Virus record (IMG/VR): IMGVR_UViG_3300049203_000028
Span: 1-50,412 of that record
Strand: one strand, 5' to 3'
Length of the DNA: 50,412 bases
DNA from: a virus
Taxonomy: Duplodnaviria; Caudoviricetes
Shown piece after piece: positions 7,291 to 17,431 of the stretch (position 1 is the first letter of the stretch; each line of letters opens with the position of its first letter). Both the position numbers and the translations under genes were made by a program. The notes below the pieces were generated by a model. The model had not been told where the DNA came from, did no database searches, and saw nothing but the letters and a program-made list of their open reading frames with translations.

Positions 7291-8319
7291 TTAGGCCGCG
7301 ATCATCTTTTCGTACACGAGGGGGATCAGGCCCGCGTTAGCCGGCTGCGCGAGTTGTCCAGCAGCTTCGATGCCGAATTCCTTCGCGAACACGAGCATGT
7401 CGGCCATCGTCTTACCTTGCGCCGTGACCCACTTGCACAGTTCTGCGAAGTTGGTCGGCGCGGCTGCCGGTGCTGCCGGTGCTGCCGGTGCTGCCGGTGC
7501 TGCCGGTGCTGCCGGTGCTGCCGGTGCTGCCGGTGCTGCCTGGGCGGTCAACGGCTGGAAGGTCTGCGCGGCGGTGGGTTGCTGCTGACGCAGTTCGGCG
7601 ACGACCTGATTCATGTAGACTTCGCCGACGCCCTTTTTCTTCTTCCACGAGCCGTCCGCGTTCACGCTGCGGGAACCCGAGTGAATGCGGGCGTCCCACG
7701 GCAGGCCGGTTTTATCCGTGGCCGGGGGCGTCGCACCGCCAGTTTGCGCCGGCACATCCGTACTTGCAGGCGCGGCTTGCGCTGCAGGCAGAGTAGATGC
7801 GGTTGGTGGGGCGGAAATGGCCGGGGACGAACCAGACGCACCGGCCGACGGGACGTTTGGGGAATTGTCCAGTACCGGATGTTCGACGGTCATACGGCCG
7901 TCTTCGATCAGGTTGTCGTCGGTCCAGCCCTGGACGTGGTACTGCTCGCGGGTGAAGCCGTCAGCTTTGGTGGTCATCGTGTAGACCGGAGCGACGACGA
8001 CCGGAACGTTGGTCACCTGGGATACCGGCAACGGGGCCGATTGTGCGACATTGCCGCCCGAAGTCTGCACCGTGACGACGACCATGTCTTCTTTCGGCGC
8101 GGTGAATTGCGTCGCTTCGCCGAACACCTGGGCGGCGGTGTTGGTCGTCACGATGGGCGTTTCCTTGCCGACGTCCGGCGCGTCGTCGCCGATCTTGTCC
8201 AGGTATTCGCGGGCCGTCATTTCCAGACGGTCGGCGCCTTCTTCGGTCATTTCGGCCAGCGTGGCGAACGCGTTTGCGAGAACGCGGAATACGGTACGAA
8301 TTTGTTTGGAGTACATCAT
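7291..8319 (-). CDS. conserved phage replication-region protein with GWTD module and PWDARIH domain
   Basis: GAAGGA RBS; DKTGLPWDARIHSGSRSVNADGSWKKKKGV; first gene after the leftward promoter. Confidence 0.75.
   Translation of the reverse strand: MMYSKQIRTVFRVLANAFATLAEMTEEGADRLEMTAREYLDKIGDDAPDVGKETPIVTTNTAAQVFGEATQFTAPKEDMVVVTVQTSGGNVAQSAPLPVSQVTNVPVVVAPVYTMTTKADGFTREQYHVQGWTDDNLIEDGRMTVEHPVLDNSPNVPSAGASGSSPAISAPPTASTLPAAQAAPASTDVPAQTGGATPPATDKTGLPWDARIHSGSRSVNADGSWKKKKGVGEVYMNQVVAELRQQQPTAAQTFQPLTAQAAPAAPAAPAAPAAPAAPAAPAAPAAAPTNFAELCKWVTAQGKTMADMLVFAKEFGIEAAGQLAQPANAGLIPLVYEKMIAA
7463..7540. repeat. perfect 9-bp tandem repeat (GCTGCCGGT x8.7) encoding an APA linker
   Basis: Read directly from sequence. 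Confidence 0.95.
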
Positions 8320-8349
8320 TTATCCTTCGTTTTGGGTTGCGGAGATTGA

Positions 8350-8379
8350 ACAATAGCGGCATACTAACCGGACTGTCAA
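8350..8379 (-). promoter_or_regulatory. sigma70-like promoter of leftward replication operon, with operator motif
   Basis: TTGACA-18 bp-TATTGT; spacer contains GTTAGTA. Confidence 0.7.
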
Positions 8380-8411
8380 CAAGAATTTTTCCTGAGATGA
8401 ACATTAAATCG

Positions 8412-10064
8412 ATGACCGTTGAACTGCGACCGTATCAGCAACAACTGAGGGGCGACATCGTCAACGACTGGTTGAAGGGATACCGTTTCGTGCTCGCAGT
8501 GTCGGCCACGGGTTCCGGCAAGACGGTCTTGTTCTCGTCGATCATCGCGGAAGAACCCGGCCCCGTGTGCGCCATTGCTCACCGTCACGAACTCGTCGCG
8601 CAAATGTCGATGGCGTTGGCGCGCAATGGTATCAGACATCGCGTTATTGGTTCTGACGCCCTGGCACGAGAATGCGTCGCGTCCCACATCGACGAACTGG
8701 GTCTGAGCTACATTGACCCGAACAGCCGCGTCGCAGTCGCCAGCGTCGATACGTTGATTCTGCGCGACGACCCGCAGTTCCACGCGTGGCGCATGAGCGT
8801 CAAATTGTGGGTCATCGACGAAGCGCACCATATCCTGAAGCACAACAAGTGGGGCAAGGCGGTCCAGTTGTTCCCGAACGCTCGCGGCCTGGGTGTGACG
8901 GCCGAGACCGAACGTGCGGACGGCTACGGCCTGGGCGATCAGAATGACGGCGTGTTCCATTCGATCGTCATCGCGCCGACCATGCGCGACATCATCAACA
9001 TGGGGTTCCTGACGGATTACCGCGTGTTTGCGCCGCCGTCCGACCTGAACTTGAAGGACATACCGCTAGGCGCTGACGGCGACTTCAGCCCGAAGAAGTT
9101 GGCCAAAGCGACGAAGGCGTCGCACATCACAGGGGACGTGGTTAAGCACTATCTCAAGCTGGCGAAAGGCAAGCTTGGCATCACGTTCGCCGTCGACATC
9201 GAAGCGGCCGAAGAGATCGCCGCAGGATACCGCGCAGCCGGCGTGCCCGCCGAGATCGTAACCGGCAAGACGAACAGCGCCGTCCGCCGCAACATCCTCA
9301 AACGATTTCGCAACCGCGAGATTCTGCAACTGGTGAACGTCGACCTGTTCGGCGAAGGCTTCGACCTCCCCGCAATTGAAGTCGTCAGCATGGCCCGCGC
9401 GACGAACTCGTTCAACCTGTTCAAACAGCAGGCCGGCCGCGCGTTACGCCTGATGCCTGGGAAAGATTGGGCGATCATCATTGACCACGTTGGTAACTTC
9501 CTGCGCCACGGTCCACCGGATCAACCTCGCGAATTCACGCTAGGGCGCCCCGTGCCGAAGTCCAAGCGCGAACCCGACGAAAACATCATTCCGCAGCGCG
9601 TATGCGTTGAATGTACGGTTCCCTACGAACGCATCTACGCGGCGTGCCCGGCATGCGGTCACGCGCCGACGCCGCCTCAGCGCAACGCACCCGAATTCGT
9701 TGATGGCGACCTCGTCGAACTGACGCAGGAAGTCTTGCGCAAGATGCGCGGAGAAGCCGCAGCAGCGGTTAATACAAGTTTCGTCCCGACTCCGATGAAT
9801 GCGAGCCCTGTCGTCGTGGCATCTATTCGCAAAAATCATTTCGCCCGCGCAGCCGCGCAAGGACCGTTGCGTGACACGCTGGCGTTGTGGGCTGGATGGC
9901 AAAAGAATTTGAAGGGTCGCACCGACAGCGAAATCTACAGGCTGTTTTTCCTCACTTACGGCATGGACATGCTAACCGCGCAAACCCTGGGCGCAGCAGA
10001 CGCCGACGCTCTGCGTATGAAGTTGCAAGCGAAACTCGATAAGCACGGGATTGTGCCCCATTGA
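8412..10064 (+). CDS. SF2 DEAD/DEAH-box DNA helicase with C-terminal Zn finger (alternative start 8397)
   Basis: LRPYQ, ATGSGKT, DEAHH, EGFDLP, QQAGRALR, IIDHVGN; CVEC...CPACG. Confidence 0.92.
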   Translation: MTVELRPYQQQLRGDIVNDWLKGYRFVLAVSATGSGKTVLFSSIIAEEPGPVCAIAHRHELVAQMSMALARNGIRHRVIGSDALARECVASHIDELGLSYIDPNSRVAVASVDTLILRDDPQFHAWRMSVKLWVIDEAHHILKHNKWGKAVQLFPNARGLGVTAETERADGYGLGDQNDGVFHSIVIAPTMRDIINMGFLTDYRVFAPPSDLNLKDIPLGADGDFSPKKLAKATKASHITGDVVKHYLKLAKGKLGITFAVDIEAAEEIAAGYRAAGVPAEIVTGKTNSAVRRNILKRFRNREILQLVNVDLFGEGFDLPAIEVVSMARATNSFNLFKQQAGRALRLMPGKDWAIIIDHVGNFLRHGPPDQPREFTLGRPVPKSKREPDENIIPQRVCVECTVPYERIYAACPACGHAPTPPQRNAPEFVDGDLVELTQEVLRKMRGEAAAAVNTSFVPTPMNASPVVVASIRKNHFARAAAQGPLRDTLALWAGWQKNLKGRTDSEIYRLFFLTYGMDMLTAQTLGAADADALRMKLQAKLDKHGIVPH

Positions 10065-11143: not shown

Positions 11144-11615
11144 CATCGTCCACCAATGGGCGACCGACTGGGGTGTCCCTCAACACGCGGCAGTAGACCT
11201 GATGTGTCGTCTCGGCATGGGGTTCGAGCCCACTATGTTTGTCGAGTTGGAAGGATGGTCCGAAAGCGCGATCCAATCCAAGGTTAGACTCGACGCCGCC
11301 AAAGCTGGCATTCTCCCGTGGCGAAACAACGTCGGCGCGCTCCGGGACGACACCGGCCGCGTGGTCCGTTACGGCCTGTGCAACGACACGGAGCAGTTGA
11401 ACGAAAGCGTCAAGTCGTCGGACCTTATCGGCATCAATCCCGTGTTGATCAAACCGGAACACGTGGGGACGATCATCGGGCAGTTTTGGGCGCGCGAGGT
11501 CAAGGAATATGGCTGGAAGTACACCGGAACCGTACGCGAGGTTGCGCAAGCGAAGTTCGGTCAAATAGTGCTGTCCAAGGGCGGCGACTTCAAATTTACG
11601 ACAGGGGAAATTTAA
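11136..11615 (+). CDS. VRR-NUC domain nuclease
   Basis: SESAIQ, WRNNVG, SSDLIGI and EVK motifs. Confidence 0.85.
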   Translation: MHSIVHQWATDWGVPQHAAVDLMCRLGMGFEPTMFVELEGWSESAIQSKVRLDAAKAGILPWRNNVGALRDDTGRVVRYGLCNDTEQLNESVKSSDLIGINPVLIKPEHVGTIIGQFWAREVKEYGWKYTGTVREVAQAKFGQIVLSKGGDFKFTTGEI

Positions 11616-12205
11616 TGGAAGTGGCAAAAATCAATTTCATGGCGGTTGAAACGGAAATACCACATACGGTCGGACCACTCGGTCTGGAAGTGGGTCAGAC
11701 ATGGCGCATGTATAGCGGCGACCTCGTGACGATCAGTCGGTACAGCAAATCGGAAAATCGTTTCTACCTCGTATTTGCAGAGACCGAAGGTGTTCCGTTC
11801 CGTGCCAGCGTTGATCCTGACGGTCGCACCAAGCTTACGTCGTGCCGCGATTACGACCTTAAAGAGCGCGTACAGCGCCTGTACATTGCGGGTCCGATGA
11901 CCGGGCACGAAGACCTGAACTTCCCGGCGTTCAACTCTGCGGCGGCCGAGTACCGCAGGCGAGGCGCGTTCGTGATCAATCCTGCCGAGATGAACGGCGG
12001 GAACGCTGAAATCGCATTGACTGCCAAACTAACCGCCGATGAGTATCACGCGCATTGGGTCCGCTGCATGAAGAAGGACATCAACGCCCTGATGACGTGC
12101 GACGGCATGGTCATGCTGCCCGGCTGGCAGAAGTCGCGCGGCGCGAAGCTGGAACACCATATTGCCCGCAACTTGGGTCTGACCATCACCTATTTGGAGG
12201 CGTGA
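11615..12205 (+). CDS. DUF4406 / nucleoside 2-deoxyribosyltransferase-like protein with N-terminal extension
   Basis: LYIAGPMTG...NFPAF, INPAE, MLPGWQKSRGAKLE; TAATG coupling to upstream gene. Confidence 0.8.
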   Translation: MEVAKINFMAVETEIPHTVGPLGLEVGQTWRMYSGDLVTISRYSKSENRFYLVFAETEGVPFRASVDPDGRTKLTSCRDYDLKERVQRLYIAGPMTGHEDLNFPAFNSAAAEYRRRGAFVINPAEMNGGNAEIALTAKLTADEYHAHWVRCMKKDINALMTCDGMVMLPGWQKSRGAKLEHHIARNLGLTITYLEA

Positions 12206-12207
12206 TC

Positions 12208-12570
12208 ATGACTCGCAAATCCATTGTCGAGTATTGGAGAATCCCCCTAGACCGCGTAAAGCTGATCCGCGCCGAATCATTCACGCATTCGGGTGGCACT
12301 CGAATCCATTTCCGGGAATACCCAATCCTAAAGTACACCGCATGCGGTGCATGGGTAAGCGATTACGGCTTCGAACGATTTGTAAATTTGCGCGCTGTAA
12401 AACAATTCGCATCGACGACCAAAGGCGAAGCGCTCGACCAACTGAAGCATCGGAAGCGTAGGCAAATACAAATCATCAGGCATCAACTGGAAAACGCAGA
12501 AAAAACACTCACCCTTATCGACAACGGTTTGACCGAATCGACAACTTATTCAGACGTGGAGTTTTATTAA
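12208..12570 (+). CDS. hypothetical phage protein
   Basis: GGAGG RBS; YPILKYTACGAWV motif; operon context. Confidence 0.7.
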   Translation: MTRKSIVEYWRIPLDRVKLIRAESFTHSGGTRIHFREYPILKYTACGAWVSDYGFERFVNLRAVKQFASTTKGEALDQLKHRKRRQIQIIRHQLENAEKTLTLIDNGLTESTTYSDVEFY

Positions 12571-12571
12571 A

Positions 12572-13792
12572 ATGTACCCATCCATCAAAGCTGCTGCCGA
12601 GGATAAAGCGAACGACGCCGTCAGCAAATCTACGCCGACGTTCCTGATCGATCCTCGCGCCGTCAAGGTCCAGGACGGATTCAACGCCCGCCCGATCGAC
12701 CCCGATCATGTGGCGTACCTAAAGCGCCTGAAAAAGTCCGGCGTCGACACGGGGGAGTACACCGTGCAGATGATCGACGGTGAGATTTACCTGCGTGACG
12801 GCCATCACCGTCACGCTGCCGACATGCAACTCATTGCCGAGGGTGAACCGATCCTTCGCGTCAAGGCGAAAGAGTTCAAAGGTGACGAGAAGGCCGCAAT
12901 CTTCTACATGCTCGGAACGCAGTCGGGAAAGGGTTACACTCCGCTCCAGGTGGGCGAACAGTACGTCAAGTTGGTGAACCTCTTTGGCATGTCGTACGAA
13001 GAGATCGCCGAGCAACGCGGTATGAGCGCGCAGCACGTCAAGGACGCTATCCGCCTGACCGAACAGCCCGTCGAACTGAAGACCGCCATCAACGAAGGCG
13101 TCATCACGTCATCGACGGCACTCAAGCTGGTCAAGAAGGTGGGTTCGACGGAAGCCGTCAAGACTATCAAACAGGCCGCCGCGCAACCCGGCGTCAAGGT
13201 TGGCAAACCCATTACGCAGAAGGTTATCGACAAGCTCGGAGACAGCTACATCGACGAGTCGAAGAAGAAGAAATCCGAATGTTCATTGCACCTGTCGGCC
13301 ATGTTGGAGTCGCCCGCATTCGACGCTGGAACAAAAGCCGCAATACGCCGAGTTCTCGACCTCGTCGACGGAAAGACGCTCGCCATCCCGCGCGACAAGG
13401 CTGCGGACAAGGCTGCGGTTGAAGCGTTCATCGAAGAACAGAAGGGTCACAAGAACAACGGCGTCAGCGTGGCCGCGCACCTGTTGTCCGATGTTCTCGC
13501 AAAGCGCCCCTTGCCGGAAGACGGAAGTCCCGGCGCGCGCTCGTACGGGCATCACGTGTGGTTGCAGGAAATGGCCGCCAGCAGCCAAAAGCCGACCTTC
13601 CGCGCTGCCGCGCACTGGTTCCTTGCGGTACTCAACGCCGATCGTAGCGGGGCAGAAGTTGCGGCCGCACCATCCGTGCTGGGTCCGGTCGCGGCGCTGC
13701 AGGCCGAGCGCGAAAGCGGCGGTCACGTGCTGGCTGAAACGCTGTGCCCGGAGCATGCGTCGCTGATCGCCTGGGCGCGGGGTCGGGCGTGA
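12572..13792 (+). CDS. ParB/Srx N-terminal domain protein with HTH and C-terminal extension
   Basis: GFNAR, LRDGHHRHAA (ParB GxxR motif), GMSYEEIAEQRGMSAQHV HTH. Confidence 0.82.
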   Translation: MYPSIKAAAEDKANDAVSKSTPTFLIDPRAVKVQDGFNARPIDPDHVAYLKRLKKSGVDTGEYTVQMIDGEIYLRDGHHRHAADMQLIAEGEPILRVKAKEFKGDEKAAIFYMLGTQSGKGYTPLQVGEQYVKLVNLFGMSYEEIAEQRGMSAQHVKDAIRLTEQPVELKTAINEGVITSSTALKLVKKVGSTEAVKTIKQAAAQPGVKVGKPITQKVIDKLGDSYIDESKKKKSECSLHLSAMLESPAFDAGTKAAIRRVLDLVDGKTLAIPRDKAADKAAVEAFIEEQKGHKNNGVSVAAHLLSDVLAKRPLPEDGSPGARSYGHHVWLQEMAASSQKPTFRAAAHWFLAVLNADRSGAEVAAAPSVLGPVAALQAERESGGHVLAETLCPEHASLIAWARGRA

Positions 13793-14619
13793 TCGCGTAT
13801 TACAACGAGTTCGACCCGTACGCCGCAGCTTGGATACGCAACCTCATTAACGCCGGCCTGATCGCGCCCGGCATCGTAGACGAAAGGAGTATCGAAGATG
13901 TCCGCCCCGATGACCTTGACGGCTTTACCCAATGCCATTTCTTCGCAGGACTCGGAGGATGGTCTTATGCTCTTCGCGCTGCCGGATGGCCAGATCATCG
14001 ACGCGTATGGACGGCTTCATGCCCGTGCCAGCCTTACAGCGCGGCAGGTGAAGGCGGCGGGTTTGCTGACGAGCGGCACCTATGGCCCCATTTCTTCCAC
14101 ATCTTGCGCGAGCAAAAGCGCAGACCTGAATCAATCTTTGGTGAGCAGGTTGCAAGCAAATTTGCGGAACCTTGGGTCGACCTTGTACACGCTGACGTGG
14201 AAGCCTTGGGTTACGCCTTCGGGTGTATCCCGTTCCCGTCTGCGAGCATCGGCGCCCCGCACATCCGGGACCGCCTGTACTGGCTGGCCGACGCCGATGG
14301 CACACGAAGCGCGGCTGGGCTACCAGCGCAGGGACACGGGCAAGAAGGGAACGCAGGAATCGCTAACCACGGTGGTGATCAATTCGGTGGGCCAGCGCGA
14401 GCACCTGCCAGCGCACCAGCCGGCCCGACTAACGGTTTCTGGCGTGCTGCTGACTGGCTCGCGTGCCGGGATGGAAAGTGGCGGCCGGTTGAACCCGGCA
14501 CATTCCCGTTGGTTAATAGGGCTCCCGCCAGAATGGGACGCCTGCGCGCCTACGGCAACGCGATCAACGTCGAGCAAGCGCGCATCTTCATCCAAACCGC
14601 AATGAGCGTGCTAGACTAA
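13789..14619 (+). CDS. C5 cytosine DNA methyltransferase, alpha polypeptide (EcoHK31I/EaeI-like)
   Basis: GTGA overlap; FFAGLGG (I), SCPCQPYS (IV), GEQV (VI), PHIRDRLY (VIII), YGNAI (X); no motif IX in this frame. Confidence 0.88.
13898..14605 (+). CDS. nested out-of-frame beta polypeptide of the methyltransferase
   Basis: AAGGAG 8 nt before ATG; WPTP and motif IX-like [17 protein letters not shown]. Confidence 0.72.
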
Positions 14620-14647: not shown

Positions 14648-14953
14648 ATGGCACGAATGACCCCGACCGACCGCAAGGCGGCAATCCTCGACGCGGCTGT
14701 TGCCGCAGCCAAGAAGCACGGCTTTGCGCGCTTGCGCCTCGTCCACATTGCGGAGCAAGCCCAGTGCAGTAACGCCCTGGTCGTGTCCCATTACGGGACC
14801 ATGGCGCAGATGCGCCGCGCCGTTATGCGCGCGGCCGTCAAACAAGAAATCCTGCCCATCATCGCCGAGGGGATCGCCACGCGCGACCCTGTGGCGTGCA
14901 AGGCTTCCGCCGACCTGCAGCGCAAAGCCCTCGCCACGCTCGCGGCGGGGTGA
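14648..14953 (+). CDS. TetR-family-like HTH transcriptional regulator
   Basis: RKAAILDAA...HG...IAEQAQCSNALVVSHYGT matches the TetR N-terminal HTH pattern. Confidence 0.8.
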   Translation: MARMTPTDRKAAILDAAVAAAKKHGFARLRLVHIAEQAQCSNALVVSHYGTMAQMRRAVMRAAVKQEILPIIAEGIATRDPVACKASADLQRKALATLAAG

Positions 14954-14956
14954 CGC

Positions 14957-17431
14957 ATGTATATCCTTCCGGGGGCTCTCGCACCTCTCGGACAGTATCG
15001 CCAGTTCATCCTAGTCCGTCTCAAACCGGCTACAGATCATCTTGGCAAAACTGTCCCTGGGAAGCTCGCCAAATATCCAGCGTGGCCACACGACCATCCT
15101 ACGACGCACACGAAGGGCGACGGAACCGTAGTCCAAGTCGGCAAATGGGGTATGGTCAGCGCACACCGCCCAGATGCATGGCTTGACTGGCAGACGGCCG
15201 CAGCACTCGCCGCAATCGGCCCTATCGGCGGCGACACCGTCGCATGGACTGTCGGCTTTGTCGTTACGGAGAATGACCCGTTCGGCGTGTACGACCTGGA
15301 CGAATGCGCCACGCTCGCGGGAACGTGGAATGATCAAGCACAAGAGATAATGCGCCGCATGCCGGCCGCCGTCGAACTATCGCTATCGGGGCGAGGTCTT
15401 CACGGTTGGTTCACGTATCAGGGGAAGGCGCCCCCACACGGTAAGCGCAATCAGCATCTCAATATTGAGATGTACACCGAGGGTCGATTCATCGCCCTGG
15501 GAACCGCCGCATCCGGCCAGATGTACGACCTCACCGCACAACTGCCGCAGTTCATCGCCGATTACTTCCCGTACGTGGAAGAGGTCGAATGCGGCGAATG
15601 GACTGACGCCCCTGTGCCCGAGCACACGCCGTTGTCGGACGAAGACTTGTTGCGCATGGCGATGGCCAGTCAACGCAAAAAAGACGCGGAGAGCGTGTTT
15701 GCTGGCGGCCCGATGATGGCGAACTTCGCCGACCTGTGGAACGCTAACGTTTCGGTTCTGGCGCGCTGCTACCCGCCGCTGTCGGCCGGGAAGCCGTTCG
15801 GACAGACTGAAGCCGACCTTGCGCTAGCAAAGGAACTCGCGTACTGGACAGGCAAGGACTGCGAGCGCATCGCGCGCTTGATGCACATGAGCGGTCTGAA
15901 GCGCGACAAATGGTCGCCCGCTGTCCACAAGACCTATTTCCGAGACACGGTGCTCAAGGGTGTTGCTTTCTGCAACGCTGTCTATAAGGCTAAATCGGTT
16001 TTGCCCCCCGCGCCGACGAGTGGTGGCAAGCTGGAACCCGTGGCGATCACGCACGGGACGTTCGTCGGCCGGGAAAACCTCGCCGCCATCTTCAAGGACT
16101 GCGTGTACGTCCAGGACAACAATGAGGTGTTGCTTCCAAACGGGGACATGGTCGACCAATCGCGATTCAACGCGAAGTACGCCGGCTACACCTTCATCCT
16201 CGACAATGAGGGGCAGAAGACGACCAAATCGGCATGGGAAGCGTTTCTCGGCAACCAGTTAATCATGTTCCCCCGTGTAGAAGGGACTGAATTTAATCCG
16301 CGCCTGGACTTCCAATACGTGGTCGAGCGCGCCGGGCGACGCTGGGTCAACATCTACAAGGCGCCCGTCGTCGAGCGCAGGCCGGGCGACGTCAAGCCGT
16401 TCATGGACTTGCTACACAAGCTGTTGCCGAACGGTGATGATGCGTTGATCCTGCTGTCGTATATGGCGGCCGTCGTGCAGTACCCCGGCGTAAAATTCCG
16501 CTGGGCGCCTTTCGTCCAGGGCACGCAGGGTAACGGCAAGTCGACCCTTGTCGAATGCCTTAAATATGCTCTGGGTCACAAATACATCTTCGCGGTGAAA
16601 ACCGGAATGATCGAAAACGGTTTTAATGCGTGGCTTGAACGGAACCTTCTTTACGTTGCGGACGACATCTACAGTGCAAAAGACCGTACCGATATGATGG
16701 AAGCACTCAAGAGCCTGATCACCGAACGCGATCAGGCGATCACGCTAAAGGGTATCGATTCGCTGCAAAAGCGAATCTGCGGCAACTTCATGTTCACGGA
16801 CAACCACAAGGACGCGATGAAGAAACAAGACGACACGCGTCGTATCTGTACCCTTTATTGCGCGCAGCAATCGAAGTGGGACCGTCAACGCGATGGCCTG
16901 ACCAAAGAGTATTTCGGTGGCTTCCTTTACCCGTGGTTGGAAAGCGGCGGATACGCCCACGTGGCACACATGCTGGCGACGATGCCGATCGACCCTCGAT
17001 ACAACCCTGCCGGCGAGTGCCAAGAAGCGCCCGAGACGAGCGTGACGCGCGAAGCTGTCATCGACGGCCGCGACGCCCTGGAACACGAGATTGCGGAATG
17101 GATCGTCCTACGCGAGCCCGGCTTTGCTGGCGACTTCGTGTCGCACCATATGCTGAAGGCGCGCATGGCGCAGAACCCACAGTTCGCGAAGATGACGAAC
17201 CCGCTCAAGATCAAAGAGAAAATGCTGCGCCTGGGGTACGAACCGCACAGAGCGTTGCCGGAAGGTCGCACGACCGTGTACGTCCAGCCGGACAACACCA
17301 TGGCTATCCTCTACGTTAAGCGCGATAGTGCGGCCGCCGAAATGAAAGACCCGCACGAGGTTGCGGCGTTGTACCAGCAGTTGCAGCAGGAAGCGCAGAC
17401 CGAACAAACAGCACGGAGGTTCGCACAATGA
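14957..17431 (+). CDS. primase-polymerase/helicase (NrS-1-like prim-pol, helical bundle, SF3/DUF5906 helicase)
   Basis: YDLD, ELSLSGRGLH, IEMY...RF, EADLALAKELAYWTG...RDKW, Walker A GTQGNGKS. Confidence 0.88.
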   Translation: MYILPGALAPLGQYRQFILVRLKPATDHLGKTVPGKLAKYPAWPHDHPTTHTKGDGTVVQVGKWGMVSAHRPDAWLDWQTAAALAAIGPIGGDTVAWTVGFVVTENDPFGVYDLDECATLAGTWNDQAQEIMRRMPAAVELSLSGRGLHGWFTYQGKAPPHGKRNQHLNIEMYTEGRFIALGTAASGQMYDLTAQLPQFIADYFPYVEEVECGEWTDAPVPEHTPLSDEDLLRMAMASQRKKDAESVFAGGPMMANFADLWNANVSVLARCYPPLSAGKPFGQTEADLALAKELAYWTGKDCERIARLMHMSGLKRDKWSPAVHKTYFRDTVLKGVAFCNAVYKAKSVLPPAPTSGGKLEPVAITHGTFVGRENLAAIFKDCVYVQDNNEVLLPNGDMVDQSRFNAKYAGYTFILDNEGQKTTKSAWEAFLGNQLIMFPRVEGTEFNPRLDFQYVVERAGRRWVNIYKAPVVERRPGDVKPFMDLLHKLLPNGDDALILLSYMAAVVQYPGVKFRWAPFVQGTQGNGKSTLVECLKYALGHKYIFAVKTGMIENGFNAWLERNLLYVADDIYSAKDRTDMMEALKSLITERDQAITLKGIDSLQKRICGNFMFTDNHKDAMKKQDDTRRICTLYCAQQSKWDRQRDGLTKEYFGGFLYPWLESGGYAHVAHMLATMPIDPRYNPAGECQEAPETSVTREAVIDGRDALEHEIAEWIVLREPGFAGDFVSHHMLKARMAQNPQFAKMTNPLKIKEKMLRLGYEPHRALPEGRTTVYVQPDNTMAILYVKRDSAAAEMKDPHEVAALYQQLQQEAQTEQTARRFAQ

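Follow-up and report, generated by a model that had tools for sequence, protein, structure and literature searches.

The stretch of DNA analysed here, called the window throughout, comprises all 50,412 nucleotides (nt) of IMG/VR virus record IMGVR_UViG_3300049203_000028 (Duplodnaviria; Caudoviricetes), the complete record, with a G+C content of approximately 60%. Its replication module contains a gene for a DNA cytosine methyltransferase (alpha) in which a second open reading frame (ORF), here named beta, is embedded in the +1 frame of the same strand, and our analysis corrects the annotation of this locus from one gene to two (Table 1). Beta covers 85% of alpha (708 of 831 nt). An earlier interpretation made from the letters of the window, referred to below as the sequence-only reading, had proposed that the two polypeptides of a cytosine methyltransferase resembling M.EcoHK31I are produced from these fully nested frames; the coordinates that it gave for alpha, the beta ORF and the ribosome-binding site of beta all proved correct, and the interval 13898-14605 does encode 235 amino acids (aa) in the +1 frame.

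Table 1. Features of the nested methyltransferase locus, in window positions. dN/dS, ratio of nonsynonymous to synonymous substitution; dNN/dNS and dNN/dSN, its forms for overlapping frames, with intervals in brackets; pLDDT, predicted local distance difference test; TRD, target-recognition domain.
Feature	Position	Strand	Selection	Other basis
GTGA shared by the alpha GTG and the stop codon (TGA) of the ParB-like gene that precedes it (12572-13792)	13789..13792	+		sequence
Alpha gene, catalytic (large-domain) chain of C5 cytosine methyltransferase	13789..14619	+		276 aa, GTG start; PF00145, phrog_363, M.HhaI profile and fold matches
Shine-Dalgarno sequence AAGGAG for beta, 8 nt 5' of the ATG, in alpha codons E32-R33-S34 (GAA-AGG-AGT)	13884..13889	+		sequence
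Beta gene, ORF embedded in the +1 frame of alpha, 235 aa, putative small-domain (recognition) chain	13898..14605	+	beta dNN/dNS 0.51	ATG start; open in 83/83 loci; phrog_31772 and phrog_1008
Beta residues 1-44 (alpha codons 38-78), weakly constrained N-terminal tail	13898..14029	+	beta dNN/dNS 0.73 (0.52-0.98), alpha dN/dS 0.08	pLDDT <50; outside predicted interface, which begins at residue 45
Beta residues 45-128 (alpha codons 80-168), conserved core (SLTARQ, GLLTSGT, helix 69-92, hairpin, LRAS) over alpha motifs IV-VIII	14030..14281	+	beta dNN/dNS 0.38, alpha dN/dS 0.16; both frames constrained	contacts alpha
Beta residues 129-174, single 46-aa GWPTP cassette (TRD-like module)	14282..14419	+		GWPTP at 129-133; module shared among beta proteins
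Alpha codons 169-216 (variable middle), low-complexity linker of ~48 residues, neutral while beta is selected	14293..14436	+	beta dNN/dNS 0.48 (0.38-0.61), alpha dNN/dSN 1.04 (0.82-1.32); selection in beta only	amino-acid identity 0.15-0.33; pLDDT <50
Beta residues 175-218, PARLTVSG... and motif IX-like segment (197-213)	14420..14551	+		invariant residues; Magnar gp43 motif; dense contacts with alpha 208-262
Alpha residues 217-276, C-terminal block ending in RLRAYGNAI (motif X), and C-terminal helix	14437..14616	+	codons 217-255: beta dNN/dNS 0.37, alpha dN/dS 0.31; both constrained	invariant residues; contacts beta

The main frame of alpha is free of stops from 13744 to 14619, and we place its start at the GTG of position 13789 because homologues begin with M-x-AYYNE. 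The GTGA overlap at this start suggests that translation of alpha may be coupled to that of the ParB-like gene upstream. Beta possesses start signals of its own. As the sequence-only reading had pointed out, its Shine-Dalgarno (SD) sequence is built from codons that are unusual for this genome: among the 8049 codons of 16 window ORFs taken as reference, AGG represents 2.5% of the Arg codons and AGT 5.7% of the Ser codons, and GAT, the source of the AT in the ATG of beta, 19.6% of the Asp codons. For comparison we relied on 83 loci: the 80 best among 595 confirmed IMG/VR matches, those of two phage records, and the window's own locus. The ATG of beta is found at the same offset in 70 of these loci, 57 of which also have an SD-like site, and the remaining 13 have an in-frame ATG that is 12-24 nt off.

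The +1 frame is open over 221-325 codons in each of the 83 loci, which range from 53 to 66% G+C and include that of the E. coli phage K1H. Its median length of 276 codons corresponds to 0.88 of the length of alpha, and the medians of the other four alternative frames lie between 51 and 145 codons. The sequence-only reading had named interruption of the nested frame by stops in close homologues as a finding by which its proposal would fall; no such interruption was encountered in these loci. Across all loci, the observed +1 length was reached by 159 of 16,600 synonymous shuffles and by 94 of 16,600 codon permutations; in the case of the window alone, the corresponding numbers are 1 of 200 and 0 of 200. 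Conservation at synonymous sites, assessed with the 64 of the 83 sequences that were retained at <85% identity, leads to the same region: given the same alpha amino acid, the same codon is used with a frequency of 0.44 in codons 1-30, which precede beta, and of 0.64 in codons 38-272. This constraint peaks at 0.80-0.83 over the GLLTSGT and GSTLYxLTWK segments of beta and over a third conserved beta stretch, and stays at baseline (0.37-0.49) over alpha codons 38-78, which encode the tail of beta. Selection was estimated from 27 disjoint pairs of 72-96% nucleotide identity with a script of our own, written in the style of OLGenie. The dNN/dNS of beta was 0.51 (0.44-0.59). Of the two controls calculated with the same script, the +2 frame had a value of 1.23 (1.06-1.47), and the part of the +1 frame that precedes beta had one of 1.10 (0.80-1.47). 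The embedded ORF is a genuine gene and no artefact of composition, and both frames are conserved under purifying selection.

Alpha itself is readily recognized. Motifs I (FFAGLGG, residues 51-57), IV (CPCQ, 78-81), VI (GEQV, 118-121), VIII (HIRDR, 158-162) and X (YGNAI, 255-259), all of them listed in the sequence-only reading, can be read from its sequence. PF00145 covers residues 75-167 only (E 1.6e-9; bit score 38.1, cut-off 22), phrog_363, labelled 'DNA methyltransferase', matches residues 1-274 (E 1.1e-80), and positions 73-173 in a profile of 54 alpha sequences align to residues 72-176 of M.HhaI (E 1.4e-15). When the AlphaFold2 (AF2) model of alpha (pLDDT 71.7) was compared with known folds, M.HhaI, DNMT2 and M.HaeIII were the top matches, the best E-value being 1.9e-7 for M.HhaI and those of the rest being weaker. 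By sequence and by fold, alpha is a C5-METHYLTRANSFERASE core. Also borne out is the earlier remark that alpha is devoid of motif IX: neither this motif nor a TRD is present between motifs VIII and X, where residues 169-216 form a low-complexity linker that evolves neutrally (1.04) and is modelled with low confidence, and a motif IX-like segment is found in beta instead. The C-terminal block of alpha contains the invariant residues W218, D228, R232, Y255, G256, N257 and I259.

The order of the motifs in alpha looks permuted. FFAGLGG directly abuts motif IV, and residues 1-39, which precede it, contain the strings NE-x-D-x-YA and I-x-DV that resemble motifs II and III. These residues fit the claim of the sequence-only reading that II/III-like segments lie before motif I, without proving it, as positions 40-69 of alpha align only weakly to residues 4-33 of HhaI, the region of motif I (HMMER independent E-value 2.2e3). 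This weak stretch is what alignment offers in favour of the permuted order, which we consequently report as an unexplained oddity.

Beta combines conserved and variable parts. Its core, in which a helix and a hairpin are predicted confidently, contains the invariant residues G93, S94, L96, W101, R116 and S118, and the motif IX-like segment contains L198, P200, R204, W205, L206, P210 and W213; all 17 invariant columns of the beta alignment are kept in the window's copy. Modelled alone, beta folds poorly (AF2 pLDDT 58.1). The motif IX-like segment near its C-terminus matches, over a short stretch, EFYEWLMGLPRGW of gp43 from the Mycobacterium phage Magnar, a single-chain enzyme in which this sequence immediately precedes LLGNGVVPQQA (motif X). 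The 46-aa module of the window recurs, at varied positions, in 33 of 312 beta proteins (at least 35 aa covered, 64-91% identity). Among the 83 beta ORFs, a strict GWxT[PAST] pattern occurs two to three times in 51, once in 23, including that of the window, and not at all in nine, in which variants such as SWPTP are used. Insertions in the variable region preserve both frames and add GWPTP repeats in the frame of beta. In a close IMG/VR relative (L011, 2501-3535), the alpha flanks are 95% and the beta flanks 82% identical to those of the window, and the middle is occupied by three different GWPTP-type modules; this looks like a recent exchange of cassettes. The sequence-only reading had assigned WPTP and a motif IX-like segment to the nested frame. 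Both are there, at residues 129-133 and 197-213, but beta holds more than motif IX. As it also comprises the variable WPTP cassette and a conserved helix-hairpin core with GSTLYxLTWK and LRAS, it looks like a whole small (recognition) domain.

When alpha and beta were modelled as a complex, the interaction prediction score from aligned errors (ipSAE) was 0.91, 0.91 and 0.90, and the best of three controls reached 0.00. The models contain 409-429 contacts, the partner pLDDT is 76-77, and the runs share at least 83% of their contacts. The predicted interface joins residues 45-220 of beta to residues 11-42, 99-170 and 208-274 of alpha. Among solved complexes, 58 of 80 reach the pass mark used for such models, as do 2 of 110 pairs that were mismatched; with our own alignments as input, these counts apply only roughly. 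The modelling supports an association of alpha and beta through an extensive predicted interface.

We consider it highly probable that the locus specifies a two-polypeptide (heterodimeric) DNA cytosine-5 methyltransferase from one dual-coding gene. This conclusion is supported by the openness of the +1 frame, the constraint on synonymous sites, the dN/dS values with their controls, the conserved ATG and SD sequence, and the model of the complex. The central proposal of the sequence-only reading thereby gains computational support from the frame, selection, start signals and model, and two of its side claims had to be amended. These data lend themselves to the following scheme. Translation of alpha would initiate at its GTG, coupled to the stop of the ParB-like gene, and would produce the catalytic large domain, which binds S-adenosylmethionine and carries motifs I, IV, VI, VIII and X. 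Ribosomes would start separately at AAGGAG-N8-ATG 13898 in the +1 frame, so that beta is presumably translated as a protein of its own. It would be laid out as a loose tail (residues 1 to ~44), a helix-hairpin core (45-128), one exchangeable GWPTP cassette (129-174) and a motif IX-like part (175-218). Beta would then pack onto alpha, including the C-terminal 60 residues of the latter, and would in this manner rebuild the small domain, by which single-chain enzymes read the major groove and select their target. In the simplest reading, alpha is the large domain and beta the small domain; we infer that both chains are required for activity and that the cassette determines specificity. The enzyme presumably shields the DNA of the phage from host restriction.

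A number of points weigh against this two-chain enzyme. The 80 IMG/VR loci are the closest ones and not a random set; the selection estimates come from our own script and from pairs that share ancestry; and the complex model provides likeness and confidence rather than binding, with our own alignments lying outside its calibration. Similarity of the +1 frame between loci had to be rejected as evidence. By tblastn, the +1 protein matches 241 phage records, yet all six frames match 82 of 82 loci, with median bit scores of 166 for +1, 118 for +2 (15 stops) and 199 for -1. As the DNA itself is conserved, all six frames match, and alternate-frame similarity was therefore discarded. Beta has no match among Pfam families at E up to 1 or among NCBIfam families, and a profile search at E up to 10 found no sequence relative in the PDB. 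Its hhalign match to Magnar gp43 extends over no more than 18 columns (probability 37%, E 3.7e-4). Within the window, beta departs at two positions that are conserved in at least 90% of the sequences (R197 for Q, I207 for M), and a second GWPTP repeat, of which at least 90% of 54 aligned beta chains keep the Trp, is absent from it; on account of these departures, the window's beta could be weakened. Finally, the sources that we searched contained no expression, proteomic or methylation data for any member of the family.

Three other explanations deserve to be weighed against a two-chain methyltransferase. Beta might be real and conserved but no subunit of the enzyme, serving instead in DNA binding, anti-defence or regulation, with alpha being active alone. 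Such a role would fit the lack of Pfam, NCBIfam and PDB sequence matches for beta, the retention of motifs I, IV, VI, VIII and X by alpha, and the statement of a review that overprinted viral genes are mostly functionally unrelated (PMC8227390). It is difficult to reconcile, however, with the fact that beta ends in LNPxxxxWLMGLPxxW, a motif placed before motif X in single-chain relatives, whereas alpha has no such segment and is neutral in its stretch between motifs VIII and X. The complex model, with 0.91 against 0.00 for the best of the three controls and ~410 contacts that involve beta 45-220, points in the same direction, as do the PHROG families matching beta, whose designation as DNA methyltransferase is a label and not a test. 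We regard an unrelated function of beta as improbable.

Programmed ribosomal frameshifting from alpha into the +1 frame, perhaps followed by a return for motif X, would generate a single polypeptide and no separate beta. We consider this very improbable. Residues 45-128 of beta, which are located 5' of any useful shift site, are under purifying selection (0.38) and constrain the synonymous sites of alpha; the conserved ATG, at its usual offset in 70 of 83 loci (57 with an SD-like site) and nearby in the other 13, marks independent initiation; and motif X would require two compensating shifts. What speaks for a shift is that a path from frame 0 to +1 and back to 0 would restore the canonical order VIII-TRD-IX-X, and that one database protein, P0229 (507 aa), consists of the N-terminus of alpha followed, after '...ADWLACRDG', by the C-terminus of beta, being alone in carrying PF00145 among 109 longer matches. 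This protein is, however, a single sequence known from a pair of short contigs, and an error of sequencing may account for it. That the nested ORF is not translated at all, and is kept open by GC-rich composition, by codon bias or by a constraint at the nucleotide level such as RNA structure, strikes us as scarcely credible. Long alternative ORFs are frequent in GC-rich genes such as those of this ~60% G+C genome, the antisense -0 frame attains 300 codons in one locus, and the loci resemble one another by tblastn in all six frames; yet composition would have to account for a +1 frame open in every one of the 83 loci over 53-66% G+C, K1H included, for a dNN/dNS of 0.51 in this frame when the +2 frame gives 1.23 and the sequence ahead of the ATG 1.10, for conserved start signals of beta, and for insertions in the variable region that interrupt neither frame and supply further GWPTP repeats in that of beta.

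The two-chain enzyme proposed here has a precedent. M.EcoHK31I, from E. coli HK31 and with the target YGGCCR, was reportedly characterized as an alpha/beta C5 methyltransferase by Lee, Kam and Shaw in 1995, and it belongs to a restriction-modification system. Like the beta of the window, its smaller chain lies fully inside alpha, in another frame of the same strand, and the first ~44 residues of the window's beta, weakly constrained and outside the interface, echo a dispensable segment of ~42 residues in that chain. The two systems differ in that the variable cassette of the window is selected in the frame of beta (0.48) and neutral in that of alpha (1.04), whereas the TRD of M.EcoHK31I is assigned to alpha, and in that the latter is part of a restriction-modification system, whereas the scanned genes flanking the window's enzyme include no restriction enzyme. 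Two publications describe the beta of M.EcoHK31I as encoded wholly within the alpha gene in another frame, with both chains needed, and its first ~42 residues as dispensable in vitro, with internal Met codons that can start it (PMC2836561, PMC3404938); the TRD is assigned to alpha there, and only motif IX to beta (PMC3404938). The name M.EcoHK31I does not appear among 30 plasmid records listed of the 49 that matched, and the likeness rests on descriptions of that enzyme. The proposed split of the window's enzyme within the variable region, with a motif IX-like segment on the second chain, has a counterpart in M.AquI, whose genes are consecutive and not nested. In M.AquI, motif X is on the smaller subunit, whereas in the window it is on alpha. 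M.AquI (CYCGRG) consists of two subunits split in the variable region, the smaller of which has part of this region together with motifs IX-X (PMC3404938).

The closest parallels in organization come from phages. The same two nested coding sequences (CDSs) on one strand are annotated in K1H (ORF29/ORF28, NC_027994), in the Xanthomonas phage PhiXhv-18 and in the Paenibacillus phage Pagassa (gp59/gp60, NC_048690), and 190 columns of the beta profile align with Pagassa gp60 (97.8% probability, E 1e-12). Compared with these phages and with the PHROG families, the beta of the window is minimal, having one cassette, whereas 51 of the 83 beta ORFs have two or three. The alpha of Pagassa (L086, 961-2031) differs from that of the window by an N-terminal motif I in canonical order, and only motifs IV-VIII of the two align. 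Magnar gp43 shares the catalytic core (34.7% identity over alpha residues 73-167) and has the WLMGLPxGW motif, which stands in frame between motifs VIII and X, before GNGVVP; it differs by being one chain from one frame, without any nested ORF of >104 aa. Tandem TRDs are known from the multispecific enzymes of the Bacillus phages SPR and phi3T, which the tandem exchangeable recognition modules of the window's family recall. The window is a further case of a layout that was proven once, in M.EcoHK31I, and is common in phages, and it represents the minimal form with one cassette.

We are evenly divided over a broader reading. In this reading, beta would constitute the entire DNA-recognition domain, assembled from exchangeable GWPTP cassettes of ~46 aa opposite a neutral linker in alpha, so that phages could swap or stack specificities without touching the catalytic chain; with ~10^4 clusters from phages of Proteobacteria and Firmicutes, no conserved pair of overprinted genes in bacterial viruses would be larger than alpha and beta, and motif I of alpha would have moved behind motifs II and III. 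The literature that we searched (open-access text and bioRxiv) contains neither a description of a widespread nested two-chain C5 methyltransferase of phages nor one of alpha and beta as such an overprinted pair; a paper on P. larvae phages lists two DNA-cytosine methyltransferase genes side by side and, in those passages, leaves their nesting uncommented. Should both chains be needed, thousands of phage and prophage genes annotated as 'DNA cytosine methyltransferase' would represent half an enzyme, and predictions of specificity made from alpha alone would be aimed at the wrong chain. For the study of dual coding, the locus is unusually clean: 85% of a gene is used in two frames, some of its segments are doubly constrained and one has a single selected frame, which illustrates how one sequence accommodates two proteins. 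Methyltransferases of this type, heterodimeric and with a small recognition chain built from cassettes, are moreover what has been sought as scaffolds for targeted methylation (PMC2836561).

Beta proteins are widespread. When 1.84 billion proteins were searched with the beta profile, 18,812 cluster representatives passed a threshold of E 0.001 and 7,799 a threshold of E 1e-30, and a word-based search with beta returned 4,484 proteins, of which the 120 listed have no Pfam domain and are all named 'hypothetical protein'. Two PHROG families match beta, phrog_31772 (E 1.7e-27) and phrog_1008 (E 3.2e-27), both labelled DNA methyltransferase. The expectation of the sequence-only reading that standard gene callers would miss beta was consequently too sweeping in view of the 18,812 clusters, the two PHROG families and the three phages in which both CDSs are annotated; it retains some force, as NCBIfam has no model for beta and some plasmid records list one gene. 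Among the 30 plasmid records listed of 49 matched, 12 give a single 'DNA cytosine methyltransferase' alone.

A search for fused or free-standing forms of beta produced 109 longer proteins, four of which have a Pfam domain (PF01844, PF13392, PF00476 and PF00145). P0229 was rejected as a natural single-chain ancestor, being a chimera that switches from the frame of alpha to that of beta; it holds an insert of ~250 aa between motifs VI and VIII and may reflect a sequencing frameshift or a natural fusion. In two beta chains, P0151 (469 aa) and P0194, an HNH endonuclease domain (PF01844 and PF13392) is inserted near the C-terminus in the frame of beta. The Stenotrophomonas phage SBP4phi2 has a distant alpha-like gene (L085, 1237-2046) with 35.8% identity over alpha residues 73-167, for which one CDS is annotated; it contains a nested +1 ORF of 199 aa ending in LNPCFGDWVMGWVTGW. 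This ORF was not counted as a member of the family, its match to the beta profile being weak (probability 24.6%, E 8e-4).

No close relative of the window was found among 50,697 phage records; nine matched, none covering >1% of a 24-kb query. The flanking genes that were scanned (ParB-like, TetR-like and primase-helicase) do not include a restriction enzyme, and the methyltransferase is apparently an orphan phage enzyme. Farther upstream in the same module lie a ResIII/DEAD-box helicase (8274-10064, 596 aa) and a DUF4406 protein (11318-12205, 295 aa), the ORF of which is overlapped by a 171-aa ORF without a Pfam match (12055-12570). The gene immediately upstream of alpha (12572-13792) encodes 406 aa and has a ParB helix-turn-helix domain (PF17762, E 3.1e-8). 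Directly 3' of the methyltransferase, a 101-aa ORF (14648-14953) matches the TetR_N helix-turn-helix (PF00440, E 1.2e-5) and is far below the length of a full TetR regulator. It is followed by a replication protein of 824 aa (14957-17431) that combines an NrS-1 polymerase HBD domain (PF22763) with DUF5906/VapE-like domains and is probably a primase-polymerase/helicase.

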